Source of the DNA: a virus
Taxonomy: Duplodnaviria; Heunggongvirae; Uroviricota; Caudoviricetes
Strand: one strand, 5' to 3'
Virus record (IMG/VR): IMGVR_UViG_2850808358_000014
Length of the DNA: 48,456 bases
This document shows positions 2,290 through 33,110 of the stretch, piece after piece. The position numbers were made by a program, and so were the translations under genes. How positions within the stretch are numbered: the stretch's first letter is position 1; each line of letters begins with the position of its first letter. The notes under the pieces are model-generated. The model saw only the letters and a list, made by a program, of their open reading frames with translations. It did no database searches and was not told where the DNA came from.

Positions 2290-2674
2290 TTACCGCCGTA
2301 AGTGCTCCGGCTTCCTCCACTGGTAAGTATTTTTCGCGCTCTCCCTCCGTTGTTGAGAACGGCGACGATATGCCAGCAACTCAAGGACTCTTGTTCGTAT
2401 GTTGCGCATATCCACGCCGTTAAGCTCAATACCGTCACGGCGCATCACCTCAGCCACCACACGCGCGTAATTTTCAGCGGTGACGCTGTCCGGCTGCGTG
2501 GCCACCTGTTTGCCTGTTGCCTGACAGATTCCGGTAATACGGCGGATTACTTTCAGTAGTTCGGCGTCGGTCATGGTTATGGTTTCCATAGTGATGGGGG
2601 AACAATTTCTGTAATCTGCGAAGCTGGCGATCGGTCAGACTCAAATGCCTGGCAACTTCAGTCTGAGTAGCCAC
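2290..2674 (-). CDS. small HTH DNA-binding protein, reading frame apparently disrupted
   Basis: GTG-start ORF with SD GAGGTG (N-terminus MATQTEVARHLSLTDRQLRRL, HTH-like) overlaps a 99-aa ORF in another frame; the first frame ends in a His/Arg-rich tail. Confidence 0.45.
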
Positions 2675-2932: not shown

Positions 2933-2962
2933 AAAAAAGCCGGATTTCTCCGGCCTTTTCTC
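2933..2962 (-). terminator. rho-independent terminator after the 137-aa gene
   Basis: On the minus strand, GCCGGA-loop-TCCGGC hairpin followed by a run of 8 U. Confidence 0.6.
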
Positions 2963-3374
2963 AGATGGTTTTCAGTATGCGATCGATTTCGCCGTCATCA
3001 CCCTGATATCTGCCATCGTATGCCATGCCAGGGCTTACGGCCTGCGGGCTGTGCATGTCCATAAAGTTTTCAAAGGCTGCGGTAAGCTCCGGCGCAACCT
3101 TCGGGCGTTCCTGCTCTATGGTCATGTTCAGGATTTCCCGGGCATTATCGACGCTAATACATGGCACGTTTGCCATTGCACGTAACAGCGGCTGATAGTC
3201 GTCAGATTCATGAAGCGCCATAATCGCATCAGTGCGCGGCTTGTCCTGCTCTTCCAGTTTGTTAAGTTGATATATAGCCTCGTAGGTTGATAAACCTCTG
3301 TCCGCCATTGCCCGCGCTTCGGCTTTAAATTTACTCGCCAGCGGTAGCGCCATGATAGCTTCATTGATTGCCAT
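2961..3374 (-). CDS. hypothetical protein, 137 aa, last gene of the capsid operon
   Basis: Intact ORF directly downstream of the gpD-like gene and followed by a terminator; no family recognised. Confidence 0.6.
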   Translation of the reverse strand: MAINEAIMALPLASKFKAEARAMADRGLSTYEAIYQLNKLEEQDKPRTDAIMALHESDDYQPLLRAMANVPCISVDNAREILNMTIEQERPKVAPELTAAFENFMDMHSPQAVSPGMAYDGRYQGDDGEIDRILKTI

Positions 3375-3386: not shown

Positions 3387-3676
3387 TTATCGCACCAGTG
3401 GCTGAACGGATACGCCAGAACCCGCAAAAGCGGCGCATTTTTTCGCGTCGGTGTCGACGCTCTCGGGCCAGTTAACGGCGGCGATATTAAATATCCCCGT
3501 CTTGTAACACTGTGCTGATTTCTGCTTTGACGTGTCCACGGGTACGCCGTCAGATAAACAGCCTTGCCAGATTCCTGACCATCCCACGCCTTAAACTCGC
3601 CATTGTCCGCCAGCATCAGCGGAAAAATGTACCAGCGTCGTGGCAACCTGCTGTGTGCCTGCATATAACTCAACAT
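3387..3676 (-). pseudogene. lambda gpD-like head decoration protein, frameshifted
   Basis: Two overlapping ORF fragments; joined they read ...EFKAWDGQESGKAVYLTAYP|VDTSKQ...KKCAAFAGSGVSV, which resembles the lambda gpD core (KLVAWDG...KKRTAFAGTAISIV); the break is at a C run near 3541. Confidence 0.6.
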
Positions 3677-3700
3677 ATGGAGTGCCCATAGAATCTCCCG

Positions 3701-4756
3701 TTAACCAATTTTCACAGTAACAAATTTGCGGATATCTGCCGGAACCGGCTGCGGTGCGCTGTGCGTCTGCACGTACTCAATCGCCGGATCGCCGCTCTCA
3801 ATCCAGTTTTTCGGGTAGTACATGTTTTGCGTTGCGCCCGTTCTTACCGCTTCCGGATCCATAATCGCGCCATAGGCCACCAGACCTTTATTGCTGGTGT
3901 TGCCCAGGACAAGCAAATCAGGCTCAAGGAAATATTTTTCGGTGCCGTCGCTGTCGGTGTATTTGCCGGAATAGACGATAAGGGCCAGATCACCCAGATA
4001 GCCTTTAAAGCTCACCACTTCGCCCAGGTTTTTACACGCCAGCTCTGCGGCGGATTCTGAACCACGGGAAAGATCGTACAGCTCGCGGAATTTTTTAAAG
4101 CTACGTAAGGTGCGCCATACGTCAGCGCCCATAATCATGACGTTGGCGGGGCAGCTGGCCTGTTCGGCGTATAGCTCGATGTCATCTGTCGGATCATGCG
4201 TCTCTTTATTCTGCTCAGACCATTTTTTTCCTGGCCCCTGATGGACAATGCAGTTTGCCGGCATATTCCAGTCGATTTCATAGCGTTCTATGCCTTCGCC
4301 TTCAATGATGTTTTTTCCGGTCGTGACCGCATTCACTGCCAGCCATTCCACACGCGCTTTAATGGCGTTTATCTGGCGGCGCATGTTGCCAGTAATGAGG
4401 CGCATACGTCGCCAGGTGGGGTCGTTAAGCAGTGCCGGATCTTCTCCAGCCATGCGCATGATGGTTTTTGATGGATCGATTTCGTGTTTGGGTTTCATGT
4501 AGCCAGGGCGGATAGTGCTTGTTTCGTACCCTTTATCACGCTGAACCTGGCTACCCACCACAGGCGAACAAAACGCCGACATGGTGACTTCTTCAATGTC
4601 CAGGGTATCCAGCATGACATCTTGTGTGTTGAAGGTTGCTACTTTCGGGAAAAACAGCGTGGTAAACAGCGGACTGAATTTAAATTCCGGGATATCCCCG
4701 CGATTCAGGTACGCGAAAAGCTGGTTAGTGTTAAGTGCCGTTGCTTTGTCTGCCAT
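3701..4756 (-). CDS. lambda gpE-like major capsid protein, 351 aa
   Basis: Collinear similarity to lambda E as recalled (PGYMKPKHE, DPTDDIE, KGYLGD, YPKNW motifs) and near-identical length. Confidence 0.85.
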   Translation of the reverse strand: MADKATALNTNQLFAYLNRGDIPEFKFSPLFTTLFFPKVATFNTQDVMLDTLDIEEVTMSAFCSPVVGSQVQRDKGYETSTIRPGYMKPKHEIDPSKTIMRMAGEDPALLNDPTWRRMRLITGNMRRQINAIKARVEWLAVNAVTTGKNIIEGEGIERYEIDWNMPANCIVHQGPGKKWSEQNKETHDPTDDIELYAEQASCPANVMIMGADVWRTLRSFKKFRELYDLSRGSESAAELACKNLGEVVSFKGYLGDLALIVYSGKYTDSDGTEKYFLEPDLLVLGNTSNKGLVAYGAIMDPEAVRTGATQNMYYPKNWIESGDPAIEYVQTHSAPQPVPADIRKFVTVKIG

Positions 4757-4962
4757 TATTCACCCTCATGAGTCTGATTCATGCCAAGCGCCGCACGTAA
4801 ATAGGCGCGTACCTGCCAGCCTGTTGACGGCTCAACCATCGCCAGCGGATCAAGTCCTGCCGCAATGCCCGCTTTTACGTTCTGCTGGTGGCGTTCCTTG
4901 AGCGCCTCCACGATATCGGGGCTTATGTAAACTGTCACCCCGCCTTTTTTCTCTTCTGTCAT
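4756..4962 (-). CDS. hypothetical protein, 68 aa, translationally coupled to the capsid gene
   Basis: Its stop overlaps the capsid ATG (TAATG); no family recognised. Confidence 0.5.
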   Translation of the reverse strand: MTEEKKGGVTVYISPDIVEALKERHQQNVKAGIAAGLDPLAMVEPSTGWQVRAYLRAALGMNQTHEGE

Positions 4963-5199: not shown

Positions 5200-5610
5200 T
5201 CAGAACGGAATATCATCACCGTAGGGGTCATCGTCTCCCGCTGGTGGCTGATTACCCTGTGTGCCTGTGGTTTTGCGTCTGTTCCCGCCAGGGCGTGCCG
5301 CTCGGGCACTGATTACGCTGTCGGCAATAACCTGATAACCCTGCCGCGTTTCCCCGTTCTGTCCGGTCCACTGGCTGACCTGCATCGTGCCGGATACGCT
5401 GGCAACGTCGCCTTTTTGATGTTTAGCCAGGAAGTCGGCCTGCTTACCAAATGCCATCACCGATAGCCATAACGTCGCCTGTCCGTCCTGTGCCTGGCTG
5501 CATGGCAGCGATACCGCCATACGCGCCAGCGTCATCGGTGTGCCCTTGCTGGTCTGTTTTACCTGCGGGTCGTCCACCAACCGTCCGTAAGCTGCTATCT
5601 GTGCTGTCAT
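5200..5610 (-). CDS. ssb: single-stranded DNA-binding protein (short phage/plasmid type)
   Basis: OB-fold-like N-terminus, Gly/Gln-rich linker and acidic C-terminal tail ending DDDPYGDDIPF. Confidence 0.85.
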   Translation of the reverse strand: MTAQIAAYGRLVDDPQVKQTSKGTPMTLARMAVSLPCSQAQDGQATLWLSVMAFGKQADFLAKHQKGDVASVSGTMQVSQWTGQNGETRQGYQVIADSVISARAARPGGNRRKTTGTQGNQPPAGDDDPYGDDIPF

Positions 5611-6163: not shown

Positions 6164-7917
6164 TTATAAAAACGCGTCGCACTCGTCTGTTGTTATTGCG
6201 TTAGTCTGCGTTACCCCCTTAACTTTCCGCGTAATATATTCATGTCCGTAAACTTTTGCGGCAGGCTTCATAGCCTTGCCAAAGTCATTTACGTTTAGCG
6301 GTTTGCTCCTGCCTGCGTATGCCATAAACGCCAGATAGACGCGGTAAAGGCTGTTCCTGGTCGTGTACTTCACTGAATCACCACCGCCACCCATCATCAG
6401 GCCGCGCGCTTCCTCCAGAAAATTCAGGAACTGGCAAAACTCAATAACCGGATCCGTCTGTTGCTTTATTGCCAGTGCTTCATCACCGTCACGCTGTTCC
6501 AGTAGTAAAGCCCGTGCCTTCTCAGGGTCGGTAAAGTTCGCCAGCAATCGGCGGATAATAACGGGGATTTCAGCCGCAATCTTTTCCGGTAGCTCCCTGT
6601 CTTTTTCGGCCTCACTGACGATATTGTCGAAACGGAAAATCACGCGACGACGTGCCACACCTCCGGCCCGTTCGGTGAATATCATCGGGTTGTTGTCGGT
6701 CGCCAGCACCACCGCCCTGATTACCGCCGTGAAACGCTTTTCATATTTCGGGTTAATTTCCACGGGTCGCCGCCCGTGATTTTCTTGATGCCCGTTCCTT
6801 CGCCTGTATATTTCGGCTGGTCAGCCAGGACGATAAGACGACTCCCGACAACCTGCGCACGTCCACCAGCATCATCAAGCGATGTCATTTCAGCGCTTAC
6901 CGTGTTCTGTTTCCCTGCCAGAAGGCTGGCTATGTGTGTGAATGTACTTTTACCGCTCCCGCCGTCTCCGGTGGCCTCAATAAACATCTGCCAGTCGTAC
7001 CGGTTCGCCATAATCATGTAAAGCGCGGCACATATGCGCATCATCTTGCGCGGGTCTTTTCCGGCTGCGTGATCAAGCCATTTATGAAAGTTTGGCGCGT
7101 TGTCGCGGATATTCTCCCCTGGTGCTGGTGGCGTGTACTCAATGCCGTTGTGCGTGGTGATCCAGTTCTCCGGCGTGTGCGGGGAAAATTCCCCCGTTTT
7201 CAGGTTAAGCACACCATTAGTGAACGGTAGCAAATCACTGGACGGCTCGCCCATCGGGTCAGCAATAACTTTTAACGCTTCAACGGCGTTATTAATTGCC
7301 CGCTTGCTGAATGTGGCCCCGTGTTCTGAATAAACCGCCACCATTTCGCGGCTCAGTTCCATTGTGCTGACCGGACACCATATCCCGCCGCGCCATACGT
7401 GAACGATTTCACTTTCCGGATGCACACAAACGCCATCAAATCGACCAGCAAGCATCTGTGCGCGCTCACTGTCTGCCATCTGCGAAAGTTGCGCCTTTTG
7501 CTTTACCGGAAGCTCAATGACCAGACCATCAGAAAGATTCTGGCGTTCACGGGCCAGATATTCGCGCCAGTTCTGCACCTCCTGGCCGTGCATACCCTCA
7601 AGATAAAAATTTGCATCCTGTACACCTGCCGCCGCCAGCTTCTGACCAATCGCCTTGATCATTACAGGCTCAAGATGTCCGGCTCTGTATATGCGTGCTG
7701 ATTTTCTGCCATCCGGCACAATTTGCAGATTATCCAGTTCGGATAGCTGCTGCTCTCCAAGCCACACAGGAGGCTCATTATCTCCGGCTGTACGCGCGTC
7801 ATGTTCCTGCCACTGTTTCGCGTGTGCCCAGGCATCACTACCCGCAAAGATAATTACCTCTGTGTCTTTGTGTTTTATTCCGCGTGGCTGTTTTTTTACG
7901 TTCGGTGCCAGTTTCAT
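6164..7917 (-). pseudogene. P4-family primase/helicase, frameshifted
   Basis: 398-aa fragment with toprim-like N-terminus and Walker A GDGGSGKST, plus a 199-aa fragment in another frame; the join ...ITGGDP|VEINPKYEK falls at a G/C run near 6765. Confidence 0.75.
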
Positions 7918-8213
7918 TTTTTACCCCTGAATACGTTAAGCATCTTTTTTATTTCCTGAATATTGGCGCGTGCTTTCTCCCTGCTGGTGGGCACGTTACG
8001 CGGTACGGCCTGCACAAGAGAAAAATCACGGTCGAACTGATAAACAGGCATCACGCAATCATATTCGTAGCCTTCACGACGGTAGGTTACGCGCCGTTCC
8101 TCCACGCCCTTAATTATTACCGTGCCGCCGTACTTATCGCGGTAAATATCCCCGCGCATGAATTTAGTGCGAGTTTTGCCGCTGGCAGTTAAGCCAGGAT
8201 ATTTAAGTTTCAT
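7914..8213 (-). CDS. hypothetical protein, 99 aa
   Basis: Intact ORF whose stop overlaps the primase start; no family recognised. Confidence 0.5.
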   Translation of the reverse strand: MKLKYPGLTASGKTRTKFMRGDIYRDKYGGTVIIKGVEERRVTYRREGYEYDCVMPVYQFDRDFSLVQAVPRNVPTSREKARANIQEIKKMLNVFRGKK

Positions 8214-8218
8214 TATTT

Positions 8219-8452
8219 TTATTCTCCGGTGTGGGGCGCTTTATACTGGTCGTGTAATGTCTCTATTTCCTGCAACTCATTTATTACAGGCTCAAGAAGC
8301 GTTATTAATGCCGTGACAATCCTTGATTTCTGTTTATCACGCTCATTATCGCCAAATGTTTCCAGACACATTTGCAATATTTCCAACATATTTTCACTGT
8401 GAGAAAGTGCAAGAAATGCGCGGTCTGTTATTTCAATGTAAATATCACGCAT
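8219..8452 (-). CDS. hypothetical protein, 77 aa (AT-rich)
   Basis: Intact ORF abutting the IS110-family left end. Confidence 0.5.
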   Translation of the reverse strand: MRDIYIEITDRAFLALSHSENMLEILQMCLETFGDNERDKQKSRIVTALITLLEPVINELQEIETLHDQYKAPHTGE

Positions 8453-19390: not shown

Positions 19391-21555
19391 TTACCAGCCC
19401 GTAATGTAGTTATCGCCCGCGTAAATATTCAGCCCCATACCATCCCCGGTGACACGGGAACTGGTCAGGCGTAACCCCTCGCCAAGTTCGACGCGCAGCG
19501 AGGCTTCCGCATTCACTTTTTGTTCCTGCGGTTCCTTATCCGGGGCCGTCCATTTCTGATACAGGTCGGTTACAAAACCGCCCAGATACTCCCCGGCGAC
19601 ACTGCCCAGCGTGGCACCGGCAACCGTACCCAGCGGTCCGGCAAGGCTGCCAACGGCACCGCCGAGCCATGCACCGGCTGTACTGCCAATTGCGCCTGCT
19701 TTTTCATGGGTTGACGCCTGCTCATCCATCAGGACGGGGGCAAGCTGGAGTGCCCCCATTACCGGGCCACCCAGACGTGACAACGCACGACCGGCACCTT
19801 TCCCCATCCAGCCAGCGCCCCGGCACCTTTTGTCACAACCCGACCGATCGCACTGCCTGCAAGTTTGTTTCCGATACCGGAAAACCACCCGCCAGCGGCA
19901 CGCCCGGCATCAGCCAGCTTTCCGACCGTTCCCGTAACCAGTTGCCCGGCAGCACTGCCTGCAAGCCTGCTCAGAAGACCGGATTTACCGGGTAAAGGTA
20001 ATGGTGCAGGCCGTGCCGTTACCGGTACGCCGGGTGGGGGTAATGCCAGTACAGGGCGTGGTGCAGGTAATGCCAGCGGCTGTGGCCCGGACAGCAATAA
20101 CGGCTGGCGGGGTAACAGCGGGGCCATTCTTCCGCCGCTCCGTCCGCGACGACCGCCGCCACTCCCGTAGCCACCAAATCCACGGGGCCAGTTGATGACA
20201 AACACACGCTGAATGCCGGTGCCCTGCAACAGCGTCTCAGACGTCATGGCATCCGGCACCGGCAGACCTGCCCGCCCACGTTTGCGGTTCCGCATCCAGC
20301 GCCACATACGACGCCCGGTTTTAAACGGGTAACTGGCAACCTGCCACGAAGGTTTTGCCACGGCCCAGCCTGCTCTCAGGGCTTTATTGGCAAGCCAGAC
20401 AGACACCAGAACAGCAGCCAGTTTTTTCAGGCTGGCAATATTCTGGTCAACCCATGCCAGCGCATCTTTACCCGGTTTCAGCCAGCGCCATAATTCCTGC
20501 GCCGCGATTTTTACCGTTCTGAACGTGGTCAGAAATTTCTGACCAATGTTTTCTGCCAGTGCGTCAAGTTCCCCGGATTTATCCGCCATGTCGTGCCAGT
20601 TAAGTACCCGGCGCATCTCGTTCTTGATTTCTTCAAAGGGGCCGCTGTTTGCCACCTTTGTACGAAACTCAAGCAGATTGCCCTCCATCTGGGCCATCAT
20701 CCCGTCCCAGGAGTTCATGGCCGCCGCCTGTGCGCCTTTTGACTGTTCCAGTAAGATTCTGAACACCGTCAGGATGGATTTCAGGCCCAGTTTGCCTTTT
20801 TCACCCAGCTTACGGATTTTTTTCTCATCCTCACCCGTTGCATCTGCCAGCACCTTGTAAACGTTGATACCGTAACCGGTCAGCAGGTTGGCATCCGCCG
20901 CCGTGATTTGCTGACGGGCAAACATCTGTTTGAACTGTAACGAAGCCCCCTGTGCAGTGGGTAAATCCCAGCCATGCATCGCGCCCTGGTTCTGTAGCAT
21001 GGTGATGAACTGTTTTACCTGGGCATCAGTCATGCCAAACGCAGTTGATGTGCGGATCTCCTGCAGAACACCACCCAGCCCCCAGGTGGTTTCTTTTGCG
21101 TTCTGCTTCGCCCACGCCATCATGGCCTGTGCTCTGGCCTTATCGCCGTGATAGAGCGAGTTCATGGCGATAATCTGCTGCTCACGCTGGGCGGCTGCAC
21201 CAATAAACAGTTTATTGGCGGTGTAACCCACGCCAGCGATACCCAGCGCCCCGGCTGACAGCATTCGGAATGTACGGGTTGACAGAGAACCCATTCTGTC
21301 AATGGCACCAGAAACGCGCACAACCTCCATACGCAGGGCACGCAGGGAACTTTGTCCGCTACGGGACAGGGCGTTTATCTGGTTCGAATACTGGCGGGAA
21401 CGCCGGGAAAGATTGCCATTAAGATCAATAATGACAGACGCTTTTAAGCGTTTCCCGGTCACAGAAATCTCCTGATTTAACGGTGATATTGAGAGAGGGT
21501 TTTCGCCTGCTGGCAGTGCCGGAAAAAGCGGGACAGCGGGAGGGACAAGGCCCAT
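19391..21555 (-). pseudogene. tail tape measure protein (Mu gp42), frameshifted
   Basis: 598-aa and 165-aa fragments; Gly/Ala-rich; frame change near 19819. Confidence 0.8.
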
Positions 21556-21606
21556 TCCGGGCCACTTTTCAGAATGATGCCAATCGCTGTCGCCGCTTTC
21601 TCAATA

Positions 21607-22041
21607 TCATTCCGGCACCGCAGCCACTCGCCCCCGTTCTTGCGTCAGCGATGCCGCCACCGCCATGTCGCGCAGCTCCACTGCCAGCGACAGACGCTGG
21701 AAGTCATCGACGGACAGCTTACGCATCAGCGCCAGTGATAACGGGCCTTTGAGGCAGCCCACACCGGCAATCTGACGGCGCAGCATTTCCAGTCCCATCA
21801 GGGACGGGGAACTGACCAGCACCGGGCCTTCCTTGCTCATTACCACTTTTTCAGCCGCCATCTGGGCATCAATCAGATCGCCTGCGGTCAGTTCACGCAG
21901 CGTCACGTCATACTGCATTTCAGTCTCGTCACCGGTGCCGAACGGCAGGCCGTCTTTCAGTTTCAGCCCGCCGGACTGAAGTTCTGCCACAATGCTGTCA
22001 TGCAGTTCCTGTGCTTCAGGACTTAAATTCATTTCGTCCAT
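21607..22041 (-). CDS. tail assembly chaperone (Mu gp41-like)
   Basis: 144 aa between tube and tape measure genes. Confidence 0.8.
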   Translation of the reverse strand: MDEMNLSPEAQELHDSIVAELQSGGLKLKDGLPFGTGDETEMQYDVTLRELTAGDLIDAQMAAEKVVMSKEGPVLVSSPSLMGLEMLRRQIAGVGCLKGPLSLALMRKLSVDDFQRLSLAVELRDMAVAASLTQERGRVAAVPE

Positions 22042-22050
22042 TGTTTCCCC

Positions 22051-22407
22051 TTATGCAATGCGTTTGCTTTGTTTTGCCATCAGTACCAGCGAAATTTCGC
22101 CGCCGTCGTTTTTCGGTTCATCTGCCTGCCAGGCATTCGCCATCATCCAGGTTTCACCGGTGTCTGCCTGAAACTCTGCCGTGATGTTTTCCCAGCCGAT
22201 GATTTCATCCAGACCGATATCACCACCGCCCGGAATTTTGCATTCCAGCTTTGCGGCGCGGGGTTTCCCTTTCCAGCCGTAAACCCGCGAGCCGGTCACT
22301 TCTTCACGGGTGGTGCCGGACGGCGTGAAGGAAGCACCTTCCATTGATTCAAGCTCCATGCCATTGACACGGATGTACGCCACCCCCTGACGCTGATTTC
22401 CTGCCAT
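22051..22407 (-). CDS. M: tail tube protein M (Mu gp40)
   Basis: 118 aa directly downstream of the sheath gene. Confidence 0.9.
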   Translation of the reverse strand: MAGNQRQGVAYIRVNGMELESMEGASFTPSGTTREEVTGSRVYGWKGKPRAAKLECKIPGGGDIGLDEIIGWENITAEFQADTGETWMMANAWQADEPKNDGGEISLVLMAKQSKRIA

Positions 22408-22416
22408 AAATGCTCC

Positions 22417-23903
22417 TTACAGAATGAACTGGATCTGTGCCGCAAAGATGCGGAACTGGTTAATCAGGTTCGGGCCGCACAACACATCAAGACGATCCTG
22501 ATCGGCTGTATTACGCACGACATACAGCTCCTCTTTGAACGTGTCGAAGTCTTCAACCAGCCCGTCGTTTTCCCATTCTTCAAACAGTGCCAGCAACTCG
22601 GTCCGGATCACGGAAGGTGTCACCACCGCCTGACCGGTGGCAAAGCGGGTGCCATCACTTGCCAGTTTGTGGCGCGGGAATTTCTGTGTGATACGGGTTC
22701 GCAGCGAATAACGCAGATAACTCAGCGTGGCGATGGTGTTCACATTCAGATAAGACGGGTCACTGTCGCCGTACCTGTTCGTGCGGTACATTGTGATCAT
22801 GCGTTCAATCTGCATTTCACCGCCATCATTCACGTTAAACGTGGAGATGCCGTCAAACAGCAGCGCATTACGTTCTGACCAGGTGAAACGATCGCCCACC
22901 GCAGGCGGTAGCCTGCCGGGCAGCGTCAGCGTCTGGAGCGGACGTGCCGGGTCGATGGAAAGCGCCTGGCTGGCAACGGCACACAGTGTGGCGGCGTACA
23001 GATATGACGGTTCCGGTGCACCGGCAATCCCCATACAGGAGATCAGATGGTCATTACGGCTGACACCAAACGTGGAAATATCGCCATACGTGCCGGACAG
23101 CACTGTCACGGCAAAGCCATCAGCCTGATTGACCGGTCCCCAGCGTTCCTGTAATTCCGTGCGTAACAGGTTCAGGTTCGGTTCATCGGTATAGGGCATC
23201 ACAATGTATTTGTATTGCAGATCGCCCATCCCGCGATACTGGCGCTGATATCCGGGTTGCCGTTTTTCCCGGTGGCGGCTTTGAATGCCGTAATAATCCC
23301 GTAAGGGGTGGTTTCACCCGCGTAATAGTTCCAGCGCACGTCCACGGCAGATAATGCACCAATAAATTTTGCACTCAGAACCACATTCGCATGGGTGTCA
23401 TCATCTCCACTGTCTGCGCGAACTTCTGCCGTCACCGGTAAATCAGGCTGGCCTTTGATTCGGGCAACCAGCAGGTCAGCCAGCGCCGCTCCCGTTGCAC
23501 CTGCTGCGACAGATACCGCCAGTCGCTGACCGGCAATGTAAGTCACAAGCGAGCCGTTTTCGCCTGCCGTTCCTGACAGTGAAATTTCACCGACAGCAGC
23601 ATTACCGGTGCCGCTCCCCTGCGGAATACACCACAGCTCCGCCACGCGGTTAGCGTTCAGGAATGCATCTGCCATCAGTGCCAGCATGGAACCCTGACCA
23701 AACGCCGCACTGGCCTGTGAGCCGGAACGGATACGGACAGGCACGTCTGGTGCCGCACTGGCTTTACTTCCGCTTTGCCCGAACATCAGCACGCGCTGAC
23801 GGGGTGCCGGTGTTCCGCTGACGGCATTACTGTTATCAAATTCGATATACGTCAGAGGAACGCGAACATCTGACGGGATCGCGTTAAATGAAATATCGCT
23901 CAT
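22417..23903 (-). pseudogene. L: contractile tail sheath protein L (Mu gp39), frameshifted
   Basis: 234-aa and 270-aa fragments; frame change near 23231. Confidence 0.85.
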
Positions 23904-24106
23904 TTCGATTTACTCCGTTTTTTCGGCGCAGTGTCGGTATCATCCGCCGTGTTTTCGGTGCTCCCGACTTCAACCACATCACCGGCTGCAAGGCGACGTA
24001 TCCAGAAACTGTTACGGGGCTTTTCTTCTCCCTCAGACGCCAGTAATTTCATCGTGAGCGGGTCACGGATGGCTTTTCCCGCTGCGGGTTTAATTTTCAG
24101 CATCAT
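23900..24106 (-). CDS. small protein (Mu gp38-like)
   Basis: 68 aa, conserved position. Confidence 0.7.
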
Positions 24107-24638
24107 GATCCTCTTCCTGATTCACATTGATATGTGCGGCAAATTCCGGGGTTTCGTCCGGGAATTTCCAGGTCTGCCAGTGACGCTCGTAATCATCCAG
24201 CGAATCCATGTCCACACCTGACGGCAACGGCGTGATGCCACTGAAATAGATGCCGTACAGTGCGACACCTGAATTACCCTGAGCACTGGTATACAGGTTC
24301 TGGACGCTGGTCAGGCGCAGGCCGGTAGTCGGGCCAAACGTCTGTCCATTCATCCCGGCAATCAGACGCTCAACAATCTGGTAAATCCCCGGACGGTCGG
24401 TCTCCCGACCATTCAGCATTTTTGCCACCACATAAAACACCCAGCGGCTTTCCACCTCACGGCGGGTGCGGCCTTCACCGCAGCCCAGCCACGCCAGATA
24501 AACAGACGGTGGTGCAATCAGGATTTTTTTTATTGCGGCATCAGACCAGGTGCCCGGATGCGTTTTGATTTCGCGTAACGTTCGCCCGAACAGCCCGCGA
24601 ACGGTTTCAAGCAACGCAGCTTCTGTCGTGGCAATCAT
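24090..24638 (-). CDS. K: head-tail joining protein K (Mu gp37)
   Basis: 182 aa, conserved position. Confidence 0.8.
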   Translation of the reverse strand: MIATTEAALLETVRGLFGRTLREIKTHPGTWSDAAIKKILIAPPSVYLAWLGCGEGRTRREVESRWVFYVVAKMLNGRETDRPGIYQIVERLIAGMNGQTFGPTTGLRLTSVQNLYTSAQGNSGVALYGIYFSGITPLPSGVDMDSLDDYERHWQTWKFPDETPEFAAHINVNQEEDHDAEN

Positions 24639-25060
24639 CAGATGAATCCTCTCTGGTTACGGGAAAAAACAGCGGTATCAGATTTCACTTCCACCAGATT
24701 TTCGCTCACCGGTTCAGCGCCATGCGCGTCCGTTCCCAGCGGCAATTTTTCGTTAAGTACGTCATGCAGCCACTTAACGGCATCTTTATAACGTTGCGTG
24801 CACTGCTCGGTTGCCTGCGCATCACACAGGTAATAGAAGGCAATATCACAGCAGACGCGGGTCAGGGCGGCTGGCACAACAGATAACGGCAACGGATAAC
24901 GCGGGCTGATATAGCTGTCGATAAGTGCACGGGCATCCTGTAACGCCTGTTCAACCAGGCTGTCATCCGGTTCGCCCGAATCGGTTTTATCCGATGTCAG
25001 CGCGTCCAGGCTGCTGCGCCGGTAACGCTTTACCATGTCGTCAAGAGTGGCATAGCTCAT
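24638..25060 (-). CDS. J: head completion protein J (Mu gp36)
   Basis: 140 aa, conserved position. Confidence 0.8.
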   Translation of the reverse strand: MSYATLDDMVKRYRRSSLDALTSDKTDSGEPDDSLVEQALQDARALIDSYISPRYPLPLSVVPAALTRVCCDIAFYYLCDAQATEQCTQRYKDAVKWLHDVLNEKLPLGTDAHGAEPVSENLVEVKSDTAVFSRNQRGFI

Positions 25061-25467
25061 GCTTGTGCCTCAGCCAGCGCGGCTTTGATTTGCGCGCTGC
25101 TTACCGGTTCCCCCAGCGCCGCACTGACGGCTTTCACTTTGGGTTCCCCCCCTGCGGTAAAGTGTTCCGGGTTTGCCTTATCCAGACCGGCAACGGTCGC
25201 ACGGATACGGGCGTTCAGATCGCCCACACCCAGACCGTCCAGCCCCCCAGCCTCAGTGAGCGTTTCTGCTGACGATGCAGATACCACAGACAGCACGCTG
25301 TCGGCACGAATGATCGCCAGTTGTTCTTCGGTGACTTCCACGGTGTTTTCGCCACGTGTAAAGGCGATTCCGGCGCGGCGGTAGACCGGACGAAGGCATT
25401 TAATAATCGCCGTGCAAGTGATGCGAGAAGTGTCCAGCCGTTGTGAATTAAGCGAAGTGCCTGACAT
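25057..25467 (-). CDS. head-associated protein (Mu gp35-like)
   Basis: 136 aa downstream of the major head gene. Confidence 0.75.
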   Translation of the reverse strand: MSGTSLNSQRLDTSRITCTAIIKCLRPVYRRAGIAFTRGENTVEVTEEQLAIIRADSVLSVVSASSAETLTEAGGLDGLGVGDLNARIRATVAGLDKANPEHFTAGGEPKVKAVSAALGEPVSSAQIKAALAEAQA

Positions 25468-25533
25468 AACACATGCTCCTCCTTTTCCTTTAAATCAGGT
25501 TAAAAGGCGGTCTGAACCGCCTTTTAATGACGG

Positions 25534-26451
25534 TTACAGGTAGTCAGCGACAACCAGTTGCAGCTTGCCCTTCATCTCGTTGGAGACGGTGGTATTGCCA
25601 TCCGCGAACAGTTCACGGTTAAGCAGTTGCTCTGCGGCTTTTTCCAGCCCGACCGGTACAACGATATGCGTCGGCTTCAGGCCCAGCTTCTTACCGCCAT
25701 CACCTTCAAAAGATCGCATCAGTTGCCAGCCCTTCCAGAGGTTATCCAGCGTCAGATCGCCTTTTACCGCGACAGCCATCTGCCAGAAGCCGTAACCGGC
25801 AGCACGGCGGGCGCTGGCACCAAACAGGAACTCGTTATCCATAAAAACGTGGTCGTCATCGATACGGGTACGTGCGACCAGCTCCGGTTTGCGGCGCTCC
25901 TGGAAAATCAGCGGTTTGACTGCGCGGGAGCAGTCCAGCAGATAGAACGGCAGACCGCTGAAGCTGTCCTGCTCAACGATGTTGGAGGTATTAACCGCGC
26001 TGCCCGTGCCGTCCACATTCGGATATACCGGATGCTCCTTGTCGAAGAAGTTCTGACCGTCATAGCACGGCTGGGTAAAGCCATCTTTCAGAAGTTTAAA
26101 AATCAGCTCATCCGGCTGAACTGCCGCAGAACGGCCCATCTCCTGAAAAATCGGCGCATAAATACCCAGATTGTCATCCTCGAAGTCATCACGGGAAATA
26201 CCCACGGTGCCTTCAAACGTTTTATTGGCGATGGAGTAGCCATGCGCTTCCATTTGCTGAATGGTTCGCTTACCCACCCATTCTTTCAGGGTCGGGAATT
26301 TACCCAGCCAGCCATAGGTATTACTGCGGGTGGAAGAGTTCACCACCATTGCAATTTTGTTGTACTGCGACGGGGCGTCTTCAAGACCGCCCTGAAAATC
26401 CTTACGCCAGGAGGTCATCAGGGCTTTAATGGATGCCGGGGTGACAATCAT
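25534..26451 (-). CDS. T: major head subunit T (Mu gp34)
   Basis: 305 aa, MIVTPASIKALMTSWRKDFQ... matches Mu T. Confidence 0.95.
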   Translation of the reverse strand: MIVTPASIKALMTSWRKDFQGGLEDAPSQYNKIAMVVNSSTRSNTYGWLGKFPTLKEWVGKRTIQQMEAHGYSIANKTFEGTVGISRDDFEDDNLGIYAPIFQEMGRSAAVQPDELIFKLLKDGFTQPCYDGQNFFDKEHPVYPNVDGTGSAVNTSNIVEQDSFSGLPFYLLDCSRAVKPLIFQERRKPELVARTRIDDDHVFMDNEFLFGASARRAAGYGFWQMAVAVKGDLTLDNLWKGWQLMRSFEGDGGKKLGLKPTHIVVPVGLEKAAEQLLNRELFADGNTTVSNEMKGKLQLVVADYL

Positions 26452-27532
26452 TTTTCTTGTTCCTGTTTCATTTTCAGATACTCAGCCTCTGTAATGCCGA
26501 GCGCCTTCACTGCTGCCTGTTCATCAGCAGACAGCACCGCCACCGCCGTTTTTTCCTGCGACGGGATTTTCGCTGTGGTGGTCTGCATGGCAGATAACGC
26601 AGCGATGGGCTGTTTTTTCTCAAGCTGTGCCGACAGTGCCGCCACGCCAATCTGACCGCCAAGCTGTTCCAGGTAAGAGCGTTCGCTTTTGAAAATGCGG
26701 CCTTCCTGTTCCGCCTTGTCCAGAGCGGCGCTCAGGCTGGCTGTGGCGCTTTGTGCAGTCGCCTGTGCCAGTTCATCACGCAGGGCGTTGTAGCTTTCCA
26801 CCGGGACGTATTTCGTCAGGTCAACGGCGGCTTTCTGTGCCTTTTCCAGTTCGGCAGACAACGCCGCCACTTTTCCGGCATCTGTTTCGAGCGCATCAAG
26901 CGCACTCAGGGCCGCGATGGCCTGTTCATCGGTGATGTCTGCATTTTCGGGGACCGTCACCCCAAGACGCGCAAGCAGCTTGCGCAGCGTTTCATTCATG
27001 GGTTTGTTCTCCTGTTGAAGGATGTCGGGAAGGTCTGCCGCCAGTGCGGTCAGCTTTTTCATGCCGGTGGCACCGGGGTCATTGGTCAGCGCAGCAAGGC
27101 GGATTTGCAGCACCGCACCGGTGGCGGTGTCATACGGAAAAACCGCAGAGAGATAACCAAATTCGCCGTCATCGATGCGCTGCTGGGCCGCCGCCGTCCA
27201 GCGTGGGTGGATAAATAACCCTTCACCTTCACGCCACTGCATTTCATCGGCGTTAAACCAGCCAGCCGCGACGAGTTGTTCCGGGGCAATCCTTTGTCCT
27301 TACGTAGCTGGTTATGCTCGTAATCAATCAGCACGTCCTGGTTGAGCGCGCGAACGCCTTCAACCAGACGCCCGGCAATCTCACCGTCGATGAACCACCC
27401 CTGACCGCCTGTCACATCAAACGGACGACCATCACGGGCACTGAAATGACCGGCAGGCAATAGCTGGCACCAGCCGTCAGCGTCAATGGACAGCGCACTC
27501 AGTGCGGCAATGCCAATCGCGTGTTTTTTCAT
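26448..27532 (-). pseudogene. I: head protease/scaffold protein I (and nested Z), frameshifted
   Basis: 148-aa and 264-aa fragments; join ...KDKGLP|PEQLVAAGW... at a G/C run near 27284. Confidence 0.85.
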
Positions 27533-27728
27533 GTCCTGCTGCTCATCATGGTTTGTGAGCAGTCAGTTTGCGGGAGGTGCGGGAAAATCTGGGGTTATGC
27601 TATTTGAGTACTGGAGAAAGAAAGTGGAAGGAAGATAAAACGGGATTCATACACCGTTAAATACCGGTTTAAAAATCCCGTGGCGCGTTTTAAAAAATCT
27701 GTGCGGCTGATTTTATGTCTGATTCCGT
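27533..27728. other. central strong gyrase site (SGS) region
   Basis: About 200-bp non-coding gap between G and I at the genome centre, where the Mu SGS is known to lie. Confidence 0.55.
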
Positions 27729-28199
27729 TTATTGCCTCAGAGCGGCGCTGACGCGTTTTCTGATGGCATCAAAAATTTCCTGTTCCCCGGTCTTATCCAG
27801 CCCCATATAAGGACGCGCAGGAACGCCTGCCGGGCGGGGTGCCATATCGGGTGTACCGCCCCACTGATGAATGGCAGCATAAATTTTTGGCGAACCAATC
27901 AGGGCATAATCCTGTCCATAATCGGTGGTAATGCTGCGTGCCAGATCGCCATGCAGGGTAAGAATACTGCCCGGAACAAAACCATGATCCTGACGCCATG
28001 CCTGCCACGAATCGCTCCACGCTTCCCAGCCTTTCCCTGTATCCGGGTCTGCCTGCCGTTCAAATGCCTGTTCCGTGGATGACAGCAGCGCCGCAGCCAT
28101 CACACGGGGAATGGCGCGGTCACGTGTAATGGTTCCCAGTTCATCCAGTGCAAGCTGAATACGTCGCACATCCACGGCAACGTTCATATCAAGACTCAC
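27729..28199 (-). CDS. G: virion morphogenesis protein G (Mu gp31)
   Basis: 156 aa, conserved position. Confidence 0.9.
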   Translation of the reverse strand: MSLDMNVAVDVRRIQLALDELGTITRDRAIPRVMAAALLSSTEQAFERQADPDTGKGWEAWSDSWQAWRQDHGFVPGSILTLHGDLARSITTDYGQDYALIGSPKIYAAIHQWGGTPDMAPRPAGVPARPYMGLDKTGEQEIFDAIRKRVSAALRQ

Positions 28200-29514
28200 T
28201 TATTCACCTCCACATGCCCCTCCAGTATGTCAATCATCCCGTCAGCAATCGCGGCTTCAAGCGACAGTGCAGATACGCGGCTGATACTGACCAGCACATC
28301 CGCCCAGTCATTCTGTTTGCTGACAGCCTGCGATGTTCTGACCACAACTTTTGCAGTGCCGTCGCGGGTTGCCACAACATACAGCAACTGGTGGTTCTCC
28401 CTGTCCCACAATACCGCCTGTGGTTTTGCCATCAGCGACGGCAGACGCTGTAAATCTTCCGGTTTCAGGGCGGCATCAGCAGTGGTCGCCAGACTTTTCC
28501 CGTTCATTACAAGCAAACGGGCTGGCATATTCCCGGTGCGCTGATATACGGCTTCAGCCACGGATCCCGTCATAAAACCCAGCGCCCGGATTTCATGACC
28601 GGCCTGACGTGATCCTGCCAGGCGTTTAAGCCAGAGGGAAAAAGCAAGCTGACGCTCCCGGCTGTTATTCAGTGTCTGCACAACCTGCTCACGCAGCTGC
28701 GCGTCGTGAATTTCCACCAGTTTTCGAATCAGTGCCTGATCCGTACCAAATGCCGCCGAACCAGGGTTATATGACCAGCCTACATCCGGCGTCATTTTTA
28801 CCCGACCGTTGTCAAATGTGGTTGACGATGTGCGGAAAATCTCTCCGGTGCTTTCATCCGTACCGGCATCCACTTCGCGGGTGTTCATGAATGACGCACC
28901 ATAACTGACCTGTAGCCCCAGTTCTTTCATGCGGGCCGCAGACACCGCCCGGACGCGACAGCGGCAGTTCCAGCCATTGGGCGGGTAATGCGTCTGCCAG
29001 AAAATGTCGTCATACCTGAAAACCATATTGTGCAGCCGCGCATGTTCCGGGCGTGTTCTGCCATCCATAACGGCAACATACTGCCAGTACGGGTACAAAT
29101 CTGCGGTATTCATCATCTGCGCATAACGTCCTGCCCCATACGCCGTACGGGTATTGACGTTATAAATGGTTGCCAGACGACGCGGACTGCCCAGCTCGAT
29201 TACCTTTGCGTTTCCCTCTGCATCCACGATGATTTGTTTTCCCCACCATCCGAGTTTTTGCAACCGGGGGCCAGTGTGCGGGTAAATTCCTCACGGGTGA
29301 TGCCTTCACTGACAGCCCGCTCCACTTCCTCACGGATTGTGGTCAGGACATCCATCCGGGTGGCTTTGGCAACGGTAAAGGCGCGGGCGTGCGCGTCTGC
29401 CAGTTGTTCGTACCAGTTCCAGGTGATGTTGTAGCCTTTGGCGCGGAAATACGCGACAGCCTCCTTTGGCGGGAGGCGTGCGGCATACGCCAGATCAATG
29501 GTCTGCTGCGGCAT
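28196..29514 (-). pseudogene. F: MuF-like head morphogenesis protein F (gp30), frameshifted
   Basis: N-terminal and 355-aa C-terminal fragments; join ...TRTLAP|RLQKLGWWGKQ at a G/C run near 29268. Confidence 0.85.
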
Positions 29515-31033
29515 CCAGACGCCCCCATATATCGGCAACAAAAATGGCACGGGTCAGCATGTCGATAAGTTCTGCATCATCCATCTGCGGATATAATGAA
29601 GCGGCTTTGTTCATGGCGGCTTCCGGGCCATCTTTCAGCACAGAAAGAATGACGGGTTTCAGCAGGGGATCAACCGAACGCTGCCAGTCTTCCGGTGAAA
29701 CGCCCATCCGGTCGATATCATCCTCCTGCGGGATATCATCAGCGGATAATGCGGCTTCTTTCTGCGGACCGTTATCCATGACGACCGGTTGAGCAGTAAA
29801 CACGGCTTCATCACCGACCGGCTGTGGAATATGGAGTTTTTCCTGTATCCATGAGACCGGAATACGCATTCCCGCCGCCAGTTTCGGAATGGCGTCAGAC
29901 AGTGCCGTAATATCACCCGCTTCACTGGTATCAAATACAATGCCCGGCAGGCGGTTAATATCAATGGTGCTGCCACTGTTCAGTGCCAGCAGGGGATAAA
30001 TCAGATCACGGTTAATACTGCGGGCAAGCTGGCCCACATCCGCGTTACGGATTTCCCGGCGAACCTCATCATGCACTTCACCCAGCGACCGCGCGCCTTT
30101 ATCGCCAGCCTCTGTGGTCAGGGTGCCGCCCAGAATAGCTTTTGAAATCGCTTTTTCTGCCCAGCCAATCATCGCCATAAAGGGGTCTGACTGACCATCT
30201 GCGGCGCTCTGAAAATCCAGCGTCATCCCCATCGGAATAATGCCACCGGCACGTCGCCCGATATCCATCACGGCCTGCATCAGCGTGGCTTTCTCACGGT
30301 TCGTGGAGCCGGTCGGATATTTACCAACGCGCATGGGGAGTCCGTAAATTTCCAGAAACTCTGCAAAATCACGCACGGAATAGTTTTTAAAAATAAAAGG
30401 CCAGATAAGCGTGCGCACAAGGCCATTGGTGCCAACGTACCCGGTGCGGGATTTGGCCCGGTGCATAAACCAGCCGAACGGTTGCAGCTCCAGCCCGTGA
30501 TAAGACGCATCACGCAGGCGTAATTCGTTCAGATTGTCTGGGTTCGCGCAGAACAGCGCCGGATCGCGATGATGCAGCGCCACCGGTACGCGCATTTTCC
30601 CAAGCCCCCCCCATTCAATCTCCTGCATGGAATAGCCCTTGAGAATGGCATCACCGGCATCAAACAGGGCATCTTCAAACCACGCCGCATCATGCAGATA
30701 TTCATTCAGCATGTCGGCGTCTTTTTTCTCCTGTGCGCTGGCATCACGTGCCGGAGCGATGCGCCATTCCAGCGCCTGAATGGCAAGCCGGCGTTTGCTC
30801 AGTTCGGAAAAAAGGTGGGTGTCCTTTTCTTCCATATCAAAGGCCAGGTCAGCCTGTGCGGTCAGATCACCGCGTTCGGCATCACGCAGCATCTGCGCGG
30901 CCCGGTTCGGCGTCACACCACTGGAAGGATGCTCCTGCGTACGCTTCATGACCATTGCCAGCTCATCGCTGCGGGTCTGCATTTCATCGTCAAAATCAAA
31001 CGGCTGCCCGGAAATATCCAGAATACGGCCCAT
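29495..31033 (-). CDS. H: portal protein H (Mu gp29)
   Basis: 512 aa directly downstream of the large terminase. Confidence 0.9.
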   Translation of the reverse strand: MGRILDISGQPFDFDDEMQTRSDELAMVMKRTQEHPSSGVTPNRAAQMLRDAERGDLTAQADLAFDMEEKDTHLFSELSKRRLAIQALEWRIAPARDASAQEKKDADMLNEYLHDAAWFEDALFDAGDAILKGYSMQEIEWGGLGKMRVPVALHHRDPALFCANPDNLNELRLRDASYHGLELQPFGWFMHRAKSRTGYVGTNGLVRTLIWPFIFKNYSVRDFAEFLEIYGLPMRVGKYPTGSTNREKATLMQAVMDIGRRAGGIIPMGMTLDFQSAADGQSDPFMAMIGWAEKAISKAILGGTLTTEAGDKGARSLGEVHDEVRREIRNADVGQLARSINRDLIYPLLALNSGSTIDINRLPGIVFDTSEAGDITALSDAIPKLAAGMRIPVSWIQEKLHIPQPVGDEAVFTAQPVVMDNGPQKEAALSADDIPQEDDIDRMGVSPEDWQRSVDPLLKPVILSVLKDGPEAAMNKAASLYPQMDDAELIDMLTRAIFVADIWGRLDAAADH

Positions 31034-32688
31034 TACCAGCCCCCTCGTTCAAACTGGTGATAATCATCAAAATCATCGTTATCAACACCATCACCACGGT
31101 GGCGTGGTGGCAGCGCCTGTATGCTGTCCTCGTCGATAACAAAACCATTCATATAAGACGCCCTGACAGCCATACAGAGCGCCACGGCAAAGTCGCCATG
31201 TCGTCGGCCTTTACCGCCTTCGTCTTTTGTGCGCCCCTTATCAATCTGCGGAATACCTTTGTCCACCTTGATGTGGAGCAGGTCATCAAGTGTGGTCTGG
31301 TGCCGGGCAATCGTGATGTTCTGCGCTTCAAACTCGCCTTTCAGTTTCGGCATCCACTCCTGATACCAGGATGCGGTCAGATTCACACAGTCGATCATCT
31401 CCGGGCCATAAATCAGACGGGCGGCTTCTGCCAGATAACCGCCGTTACCGGTGGCATCAAATGCAGCGCCGGTAAAACGGGGCAAACGGGACAGAATGAA
31501 TAAAAGGATTTGTCGCTGCTGGTCATAGGTCACATTACGCAGCTCCACGCGGAAACATTCGCGTTTGCGTAAGTCAGGCGTGATGGCAAGCGGCACAAAC
31601 ACCGTCAGGTCGCCACGGCGTGCAAAGTCTTCGCCCAGTACGTGTTTATTGAGCGGCGACAGCGCATCGAGCAACGGGAGCAGCTCCTGTTCACACCAGT
31701 CCTGAACGATGCCGTGGCGCATTTGTGGTGTCAGCGATTCAAAATCGTCCGGGGCTTCAAAACGCAGAACCGGGATATCCCGCGCGGGTGTCATGGCAGC
31801 TTCAATCAGCACGCGTGACAGATAAGCGCCCCCGGATTTTTTAGGAATGCAGCCGTATTCCTCGTCGGCGCTCTCTTTATTCGGCGCATTCCGGTACAGG
31901 CCATCACGCCAGGCTTTTTCCGCTTCCGGCGACCACGGCTGATTCGTGACGTAACAGATACGCCGGTACAACCCGTCAGCGATGGCATCATCCAGTGTGA
32001 TGCGGTGAACGCTGTAATCCTTGCGCCCCTCGCGCGCATCCTGAATGTACTGGTTAAACAGGTTATCGACGCCGTTATGTGTCGATATGATGCGCACGCT
32101 GGCACCCCACATGTTTAGTGCAAAGGCCGCTTTCAGCAGTTCGTCCAGGGCTTCATGGAATGCCGCTTCATCAATCACCACGTCCCCCTGCAAACCACGC
32201 AGGTTAGACGGGCGGCTTGACAGCGCCTGTATCTTAAATCCGCTGTTCGGAAAGCGGATCATGTAGGTGAGGATTTCTTCTTTTTTGTCGCTGTCCCAGA
32301 AGGTCTGCTCCCAGACGTCAGCCTTTGCCAGCTGGTTAAAGGCGCGGGCAAACAGGGCACAGGCGGCGATGTATTCCAGCGCCATTTCCTGACGGGAACC
32401 CACATAAAAGACGTTGCGACCACCGCGACGCTTCGGCTTTGCTGCCGTCATGACATTGCGGCCCGCTTCAGCCCATGTCAGACCGGTACGACGGGATTTT
32501 TCAGCGATGCAAATCTGGCTTTCATCCTCAAACCAGCGGCGCTGATAGCCCAGAAAAACCGGTTCATTGCGGGGCTGTGCTTCCCCGATATCGGTCACGA
32601 TATTCACGCCGAGCAGTTCGGCTTCCTTACGCAGGTTGATTTTGCGGGGCGCATGAAGGGCTTTAAGTTTGCTTTCTCTGGTGCTCAC
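31033..32688 (-). CDS. E: terminase large subunit E (Mu gp28)
   Basis: 551 aa, GTG start, MSTRESKLKALHAPRK... Confidence 0.9.
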   Translation of the reverse strand: MSTRESKLKALHAPRKINLRKEAELLGVNIVTDIGEAQPRNEPVFLGYQRRWFEDESQICIAEKSRRTGLTWAEAGRNVMTAAKPKRRGGRNVFYVGSRQEMALEYIAACALFARAFNQLAKADVWEQTFWDSDKKEEILTYMIRFPNSGFKIQALSSRPSNLRGLQGDVVIDEAAFHEALDELLKAAFALNMWGASVRIISTHNGVDNLFNQYIQDAREGRKDYSVHRITLDDAIADGLYRRICYVTNQPWSPEAEKAWRDGLYRNAPNKESADEEYGCIPKKSGGAYLSRVLIEAAMTPARDIPVLRFEAPDDFESLTPQMRHGIVQDWCEQELLPLLDALSPLNKHVLGEDFARRGDLTVFVPLAITPDLRKRECFRVELRNVTYDQQRQILLFILSRLPRFTGAAFDATGNGGYLAEAARLIYGPEMIDCVNLTASWYQEWMPKLKGEFEAQNITIARHQTTLDDLLHIKVDKGIPQIDKGRTKDEGGKGRRHGDFAVALCMAVRASYMNGFVIDEDSIQALPPRHRGDGVDNDDFDDYHQFERGGW

Positions 32689-32743
32689 GGGTGAAAAATC
32701 CGGTATAAATTTTCAGGCATTAATCAGTAAAAAAGAGGTTTTT

Positions 32744-32938: not shown

Positions 32939-33110
32939 TCACCTGGCCCGCTGTAGCCGGGCCATCCACCAGTTGCATAACCAGATACAGGGCCTCGGCC
33001 ATAATTCGTGGATGGACTTCCGGATCCTCATCAATCTGTTTTTTCACAACGGGCCACAGTGCCATTGCCAGTTCTGTTGAGGTTTTGTATTTAGTTTTTT
33101 CATCCGCCAT
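32913..33110 (-). CDS. hypothetical 65-aa acidic protein
   Basis: GAGGAG SD; lies between gp27 and the large terminase. Confidence 0.5.
   Translation of the reverse strand: MADEKTKYKTSTELAMALWPVVKKQIDEDPEVHPRIMAEALYLVMQLVDGPATAGQVISYSQVHR

Follow-up and report, generated by a model that had tools for sequence, protein, structure and literature searches.

EcCICFT073, the type element of the Gram-negative phage-inducible chromosomal islands (PICIs) considered here, occupies positions 1377930-1388654 of E. coli CFT073. Its helper-dependent induction, packaging and transfer have been demonstrated (PMC6092414). Fillol-Salom et al. (2018) identified c1499 and c1500 as genes for a capsid protein and a head decoration protein, respectively, and found that deletion of either gene left both lambda interference and transfer of the island unchanged (PMC6092414). 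In the same study, the DNA packaged with lambda was phage-sized only, and no island-monomer band was observed on induction of CFT073. The marked derivatives of EcCICFT073 used there all carried either c1501::tetA or c1499::cat, i.e., one gene of the capsid module was always disrupted (PMC6092414). The gene responsible for interference was subsequently identified as c1503 (RppA), and other genes expressed singly gave no inhibition of lambda (PMC6739421). Of 29 reference Gram-negative PICIs, 21 carry a capsid gene, which is not needed for transfer (PMC10111431), and later papers describe packaging of the island into full-sized capsids (PMC6739421; PMC10111431).

Capsid proteins are also encoded by other satellites. 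SaPIbov5, which is likewise a satellite of cos phages, encodes Ccm, a homologue of the major capsid protein of its helper. Ccm has been demonstrated to fill the pentamers and to force the formation of small isometric heads (PMC8569155), whereas neither a change of size nor any other phenotype has been observed for the E. coli islands, and the two families are unrelated in sequence. The capsid-forming PICIs (cf-PICIs) resemble the E. coli islands in encoding their own capsid protein, but they add a portal, protease, terminase and head-tail adaptor/connector, and build complete heads. In phage lambda the order of the corresponding genes is C/Nu3, then D, then E, with the C-terminal part of gpC also being made separately as the scaffold Nu3.

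Here we describe a locus carrying a capsid gene of the lambda gpE family, followed by a broken decoration gene of the gpD family. It lies in a window of 48,456 nucleotides, i.e., the whole stretch of DNA that was analyzed (IMG/VR record IMGVR_UViG_2850808358_000014).

Results

Identity and Layout of the Island

The region 2290-8452, resuming at 46856, is very probably (we would put the probability at about 0.88) a decaying Gram-negative PICI of the EcCICFT073 type, i.e., a satellite of lambdoid cos phages with a conserved four-gene capsid module. When the proteins of the CFT073 island were used as tblastn queries, they were collinear on 2293-8452 and 46856-48053, with the best match for each gene being 52-99% identical (66% for the broken decoration gene). 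The only CFT073 island proteins absent from the window were PerC and RppA. The two elements have the same architecture, with a backbone of a DUF4222 gene, a D5-type primase, a small gene and SSB, and then the capsid module. In the E. coli relatives as a group, the order was integrase, AlpA-type regulator, ash, Icd-like, DUF4222 and D5-type primase, followed by the small gene, SSB, the 68-aa gene, capsid, decoration and the 137-aa gene. Integrase and alpA, which are hallmarks of PICIs, were present in every intact relative examined; the window contains neither, as the island continues beyond its end at position 48456. In a megablast search with 2900-5000, 598 of 5426 complete E. coli genomes proved to carry the cassette (80-95% identity), and its genes are annotated there as major capsid, head decoration, and hypothetical or "head-tail connector."

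Outside the capsid module, the island genes of the window could be placed as follows, all of them on the minus strand. The 99-aa gene at 2290..2589 (phrog_1561) is the orthologue of the last gene of EcCICFT073 (93 aa; 67% identity by tblastn). Between this and the 137-aa gene there is no rppA, as is also the case in the closest E. coli relative; the 144-aa CFT073 gene (c1503, RppA) matched the RppC structure 6HLK. A single-strand DNA-binding protein gene at 5200..5610 (PF00436) encodes a product 99% identical to the SSB of the CFT073 island. The primase/replicase gene at 6164..7917 (D5_N, DUF5906 and Pox_D5 in Pfam) is split by a 1-bp deletion, which was evident as two overlapping tblastn pieces and as a single gap, near 6754-6775, relative to two intact orthologues. 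A DUF4222-like gene and a 77-aa gene (7914..8452) are the last island genes before an IS110 insertion.

The IS110-family element breaks the island after 8452, and a 36.9-kb Mu-type prophage in turn splits the element. The prophage (8889..45829, minus strand) lies within the IS110-family transposase gene with a 5-bp duplication, GCCAG, and matched Shigella phage SfMu at 99.4% identity across 86% of the stretch tested. The island continues at 46856..48053 (minus strand) with h2-like and Icd-like genes, identified by tblastn with the CFT073 island proteins. The window copy thus differs from EcCICFT073 in lacking rppA (c1503) and PerC, in having a broken decoration gene and primase, in its interruption by IS110 with a Mu-like prophage, and in that its integrase and alpA would fall beyond the end of the window.

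Other identities for the element were considered and rejected. Against a remnant of a lambda prophage were the conserved island backbone and an identity of at most 47% to any phage capsid protein. A P4-like satellite was rejected because neither the annotated relatives nor the window ORFs contained psu, sid or delta; only primase, Icd-like and ash-type backbone genes were shared with satellites of that kind. Similarly, the element is not a cf-PICI, since no portal, protease, large terminase or head-tail adaptor/connector was present in the island ORFs of the window or in ten related islands.

The Capsid Module

The module spans 2961-4962 and consists of four tightly packed genes on the minus strand. 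In the order in which they are read, these are a 68-aa gene (4756..4962), an intact gene for a major capsid protein of 351 aa (3701..4756), a head-decoration pseudogene (3387..3689) and a 137-aa gene (2961..3374), which are the orthologues of c1498, c1499, c1500 and c1501, respectively. The stop codon of the 68-aa gene overlaps the start of the capsid gene in the sequence ATGA. The genes, their order, their orientation and their tight spacing were the same in EcCICFT073, and protein identities were 88-91% (91% for c1498, 90% for c1499 and 88% for c1501), with the sizes given for c1498 (68 aa) and c1501 (137 aa) in the published supplement (PMC6092414) matching those of the window genes. The intact orthologue of the decoration protein in locus L001 was 95% identical to c1500.

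An earlier note on this DNA, made by reading the letters, had described the product of 3701-4756 as gpE-like, and this proved correct. The protein gave full-length matches to Phage_cap_E in Pfam (PF03864; E = 1.5e-48; 166 bits against a cut-off of 22.9; profile positions 14-328 of 329) and to phrog_29 in PHROG (E = 2e-104). Assignment of the adjoining gene to the gpD family, for which the note had named a profile search as the test, was also borne out. The HDPD family (PF02924) was matched both by the C-terminal frame of the window copy (3387-3587; E = 1.6e-9; 38.4 bits against a cut-off of 29.1) and by an intact 111-aa orthologue from E. coli FDAARGOS_943 (E = 2.9e-17; 63.3 bits), and the latter also matched phrog_49 (E = 2.4e-27). 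The flanking 68-aa and 137-aa genes were present as the note had described them; however, the 68-aa gene, which it had taken to be unrelated, belongs to the module as a conserved component (c1498) whose translation is coupled to that of the capsid gene.

None of the module proteins had a match in NCBIfam, and a scan for promoters and terminators yielded hits at background level only. No portal, protease or terminase genes adjoined the capsid cassette. In a scan of a collection of species-representative genomes, neither the capsid protein nor the DNA pattern of the deletion junction described below was found.

Lesions in the Decoration Gene

The decoration gene had originally been drawn at 3387-3676. 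That interval is not an ORF: it is 290 nt long, which is not a multiple of three, and no single frame runs through it. Comparison with intact orthologues placed the true start at an ATG at 3689, giving a gene of 303 nt versus 336 nt in intact copies. Translation from this ATG proceeded for 32 codons to a premature TAA in the same frame at 3591..3593 (minus strand), with sense resuming only later. Alignment with intact orthologues showed that 32 bp are missing between two copies of CCGCTGATGCTGGCG, leaving one copy of the direct repeat at 3611..3624 (minus strand), with the junction at about 3623/3624. A second lesion was found at 3540..3542 (minus strand), where a run of C residues is short by one base (CCC versus CCCC); the extra C was present in 8 of 8 compared sequences, the gap being private to the window. 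With the 32-bp deletion, the 1-bp deletion and the premature TAA, the window contains no full-length decoration coding sequence, and we regard this copy of the gene as a pseudogene.

The 32-bp deletion is genuine, because it was carried by four other assemblies (L016-L019). These encode an identical capsid protein, and a 92-aa decoration ORF has been called in them. The deletion was absent from L020, L001 and CFT073. In a fifth assembly the same allele was intact, and a sixth had a different 1-bp deletion.

The private 1-bp deletion in the C-run, on the other hand, may be a mutation, or it may reflect a sequencing error in a homopolymer. If it were an error, the decoration gene would be intact in the organism and the locus would correspond to the 92-aa sister variant. 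The type of lesion (a base missing from a homopolymer, in this window only) and the second 1-bp gap in the primase are in favor of this explanation, which we consider possible, if on balance doubtful. Even then, the shared 32-bp deletion would still have cost the native start codon and about 22 N-terminal residues, and at best an N-terminally replaced decoration protein would be made. Whichever is the cause of the C-run gap, this lineage has lost the native N-terminus of the protein. A programmed frameshift was rejected, since both lesions are deletions relative to intact alleles, one of them a repeat-mediated loss of 32 bp. Most likely, the module in this copy is no longer functional as a set.

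Gene Order in Islands and Phages

The observation that drew attention to this locus, i.e., that the decoration gene lies downstream of the capsid gene, the reverse of the D-then-E order in lambda, is correct when read on the minus strand. Capsid-then-decoration was the order in all 11 island loci examined, whose capsid proteins were 53-95% identical. The set comprised the window itself, E. coli FDAARGOS_943 and CFT073, two E. coli islands at 62% and two at 56% capsid identity, and islands from Salmonella (67% and 53%), Serratia plymuthica (54%) and Edwardsiella tarda (63%). Three different replication modules were represented among them. In addition, one database protein was a fusion of capsid and decoration proteins, in that order.

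In phages the order was the reverse. Decoration preceded capsid in each of the 16 phage records shared by the two tblastn tables, among them Gifsy-1, phage 21 and many lambdoid isolates. It also did so in lambda, in one phage-like metagenome contig, in the icd prophage of CFT073, and in four distant phages of Aeromonas, Xylella, Klebsiella and Vibrio, in which the genes ran portal, S49 protease/scaffold, decoration, capsid. Two prophages with embedded islands (L009 and L011) had both orders side by side, with the prophage in each case having the decoration gene first. The phage capsid protein closest to that of the window was from Gifsy-1 (46.5% identity), with none exceeding 47% in the phage collection searched by tblastn; no phage decoration protein in the collection was above about 43%.

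Because the same order was found throughout the island family, it is a signature of the family rather than a rearrangement peculiar to this genome, and the layout is an ancient one that is fixed in this family of satellites. It had been proposed that the cassette was "rearranged or independently assembled." The second of these descriptions is apt, in that the cassette is independent rather than a piece of a head operon of the lambda type. By contrast, the synteny comparison gave no indication of local rearrangement, the layout being that of the conserved c1498-c1501 module of EcCICFT073, with capsid before decoration in 11 of 11 islands, and nothing in this genome has been rearranged. By the same comparisons, the capsid-then-decoration pair is an ordinary instance of what had already been published as the EcCICFT073 capsid module, with no new rearrangement. 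The use of gene order as a marker distinguishing satellite from phage is new from this work, although a modest addition.

The 137-aa and 68-aa Proteins

The 137-aa protein matched positions 474-566 of the 583 positions of phrog_53 ("head maturation protease"; E = 1e-9). By BLASTP it was 39% identical over 70 aa (E = 4e-10) to residues 416-484 of a 501-aa S49 gpC-like protease encoded by a lambdoid prophage of CFT073, whose S49 peptidase domain ends at residue 293. Comparison with the Nu3-type region using hhalign gave a probability of 97.7% (E = 2.5e-12; 111 columns). Its full length could be aligned with the last 150 residues of gpC-like proteases and with a free-standing Nu3-like protein of 195 aa, and two IMxL...A..L repeats and an F..FM..HSP.AV motif were common to this alignment. 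When 1.8 billion representative proteins were searched with the single sequence, only eight matches were obtained, one of them a free-standing Nu3-like protein. The predicted structure was all-helical, with a flexible tail or disordered linker and a terminal helix.

Among Nu3-type domains, only the multi-repeat ones found in other lambdoid prophages were matched; the Nu3 of lambda itself has diverged too far, and pairwise BLASTP against it was not significant. The protein had no match in Pfam, and Foldseek searches with the predicted model gave nothing significant in either BFVD or the PDB. The RefSeq name for its family, "head-tail connector," was not supported, there being no Pfam or NCBIfam match and no connector among the fold matches in the PDB and BFVD. 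Taken at the level of profiles and alignments, the 137-aa protein (c1501) is homologous to the Nu3-type scaffolding region at the C-terminus of lambdoid gpC-like S49 proteases, and is a predicted scaffold. This assignment is a new detail, and again a modest addition. The island therefore encodes homologues of capsid, decoration and scaffold proteins.

The set can be compared with C/Nu3, D and E of lambda, with which it shares a homologous Phage_cap_E capsid protein, an HDPD decoration protein and a Nu3-type scaffolding region. Identities are about 45% for the capsid and about 37% for the decoration protein. However, the order in the island is E, D, scaffold, whereas in lambda it is scaffold, D, E, and the scaffold homologue of the island is free-standing, whereas that of lambda is nested in the protease gene. 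Unlike lambda, the island has no portal, protease or terminase.

The 68-aa protein belongs to phrog_3255, and its gene, translationally coupled to that of the capsid protein, was conserved in one subfamily of the islands. The predicted model had a short strand and two helices, and Foldseek found nothing significant for it in the PDB. We do not claim a ribbon-helix-helix fold, the sole basis for which would be Pfam matches at E of about 0.1.

Selection on the Module

Pairwise dN/dS values between island lineages were 0.08-0.18 for the capsid protein, 0.08-0.31 for the 68-aa protein, 0.10-0.31 for the 137-aa protein and 0.15-0.61 for the decoration protein. These values indicate that the island family keeps the module proteins under purifying selection, and it follows from the low ratios that the proteins are being maintained by the family.

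Discussion

The window itself matters little, since the satellite module in it is a degraded copy of one already published. What the module does in the family as a whole is of greater interest. The four genes would form one operon, the products of which would interact with the head-assembly pathway of the helper phage. The only parts of that pathway for which the island has genes are homologues of the three lambdoid shell-forming proteins. Assembly would rest on the portal, protease and terminase of the helper; that the helper's portal and protease would be used follows from the island having none of its own. The module might then act as an accessory shell kit, co-assembling with the shell proteins of the helper or substituting for them, the closest precedent for which is Ccm of SaPIbov5.

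We judge a genuine role in building or remodeling capsids to be rather unlikely. The published results with deletions and with the size of packaged DNA (PMC6092414) count against any such role, with the caveat that a module gene was disrupted in the marked islands. The more specific proposal, that the three genes for capsid, decoration and Nu3-like proteins and the coupled 68-aa gene would make a working kit, with which the island would build or remodel heads out of its own shell proteins on the portal, protease and terminase of suitable helpers, is put forward as a tentative suggestion of somewhat low probability. On this proposal, no phenotype has been published because the marked islands were disrupted in c1501 or c1499, and because few helpers were tried.

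A different possibility is that the capsid and scaffold homologues alter the size or geometry of the helper capsid, yielding island-sized heads that exclude the helper genome. There are models for this in Ccm of SaPIbov5, which occupies the pentamers and provides a precedent (PMC8569155), and in CpmB of SaPI1, which competes with the phage scaffold. The island has homologues of exactly the proteins that set geometry, i.e., the capsid protein and the C-terminal domain of the scaffold. The purifying selection on the module, and the disruption of one of its genes in every marked derivative of EcCICFT073 studied in 2018, are also compatible with redirection of this type. Nevertheless, only phage-sized DNA was packaged with lambda, without an island-monomer band (PMC6092414), and full-sized capsids are reported for island packaging in the later papers, which makes this distinctly unlikely. 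The shell homologues might alternatively poison the assembly of heads by lambdoid phages that are not helpers, the module being defense cargo. Anti-phage functions are common in satellites, and identities of about 45% to lambdoid shell proteins may suffice for mis-assembly. We nonetheless hold such a decoy function to be highly improbable, given that deletion of c1499 or c1500 brought no relief of lambda interference, and that only c1503 (RppA), among the genes expressed alone, blocked lambda and phi80.

Finally, the module could be an inert relic of a degraded prophage head operon, with its gene order an accident of decay. The decoration gene and primase of the window are broken, the island has been invaded by insertion sequences and Mu, and there is no published phenotype, all of which would fit. 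However, about 600 of the 5426 complete E. coli genomes have the four genes in the same order and with intact frames, as do islands of Salmonella, Serratia and Edwardsiella with different replication modules, and the dN/dS ratios of the genes are well below 1. At the level of the family this explanation is contradicted, and as a general account of the module we regard it as scarcely tenable; in the present copy, it applies to the decoration gene alone.

Returning to the identification of the locus as an EcCICFT073-type island, a practical consequence is that gene order provides a cheap flag during annotation for separating islands from prophage remnants: among the loci sampled, only satellites were capsid-first, and only phages decoration-first. 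If the module does prove to be a shell kit working on the helper's machinery, these islands would represent an evolutionary intermediate between the classical PICIs and the cf-PICIs. That homologues of all three shell-forming proteins are kept under purifying selection sharpens the question of why most Gram-negative PICIs retain a capsid gene.

Both Gene Orders Occur Side by Side in Helper-Embedded Islands

Two comparison loci carry islands related to the EcCICFT073-type phage-inducible chromosomal island (PICI) of the window, each inserted in a head gene of a lambdoid prophage, i.e., the major capsid gene in locus L009 (1-13000) and the portal gene in locus L011 (1-13700). These are helper-embedded PICIs, and in both loci the two gene orders stand side by side, capsid-decoration in the island and decoration-capsid in the prophage. 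One database protein, P0029, is a 463-aa ORF in which an island-type capsid protein is fused to a decoration protein, with the capsid part first; the fusion probably reflects read-through or faulty assembly.

RefSeq calls many proteins of the 137-aa family (window 2961-3374 and relatives) "phage head-tail connector protein". A head-tail connector identity was reproduced by no profile or fold search; the family matches the Nu3-type scaffold region in lambdoid head proteases.

In published transfer and interference assays of EcCICFT073, the marked derivatives were c1501::tetA or c1499::cat (PMC6092414), and the capsid-size test probably used the same derivatives (PMC6092414). Because the markers lie in c1501 or c1499, one gene of the capsid module is therefore disrupted in each marked derivative (PMC6092414).

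The Island Is Interrupted by Nested Mobile Elements

An IS110-family element sits between the 77-aa gene of the island and the Icd-like genes, breaking the island. Its transposase gene is itself in two pieces (8686-8888 and 45830-46830), between which lies a complete Mu-type prophage (8889-45829) flanked on both sides by a 5-bp target duplication, GCCAG (8884-8888 and 45830-45834). The nesting thus has three levels, Mu within IS within island. The prophage shares 99.4% identity with the Shigella phage SfMu across 86% of the part tested, and about 96% with Mu and D108; Mom, Com and Gin lie at its right end, together with an invertible tail-fibre segment. The same IS110-family element, without Mu, is present in four sister assemblies (L016-L019). 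At the left edge, an IS4-family transposase gene (1-1011) continues past the end of the window, and over the 1.3 kb separating it from the island the match to E. coli intergenic DNA is only partial.

Compared with two intact orthologues, the island primase (6164-7917) has a single 1-bp deletion, which splits it into two overlapping ORFs. The interference gene rppA is absent from this island lineage (window 2589-2961), and 2753-2929 matches, in inverted orientation, the CFT073 stretch that separates rppA from the final gene of the island. The SSB and 68-aa genes are separated by a region that contains, at 4990-5021, a perfect 14-bp palindrome, AATTATAACTGGATGTACATCCAGTTATAATT, a possible operator, terminator or component of the origin.

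The Decoration Gene Exists in Several States

Among other assemblies encoding an identical capsid protein, the decoration gene is intact in L020, has a 32-bp deletion in L016-L019, and carries in L015 a 1-bp deletion other than the one in the window. The occurrence of several gene states alongside an identical capsid protein suggests that the decoration gene has been lost repeatedly and independently within one lineage.
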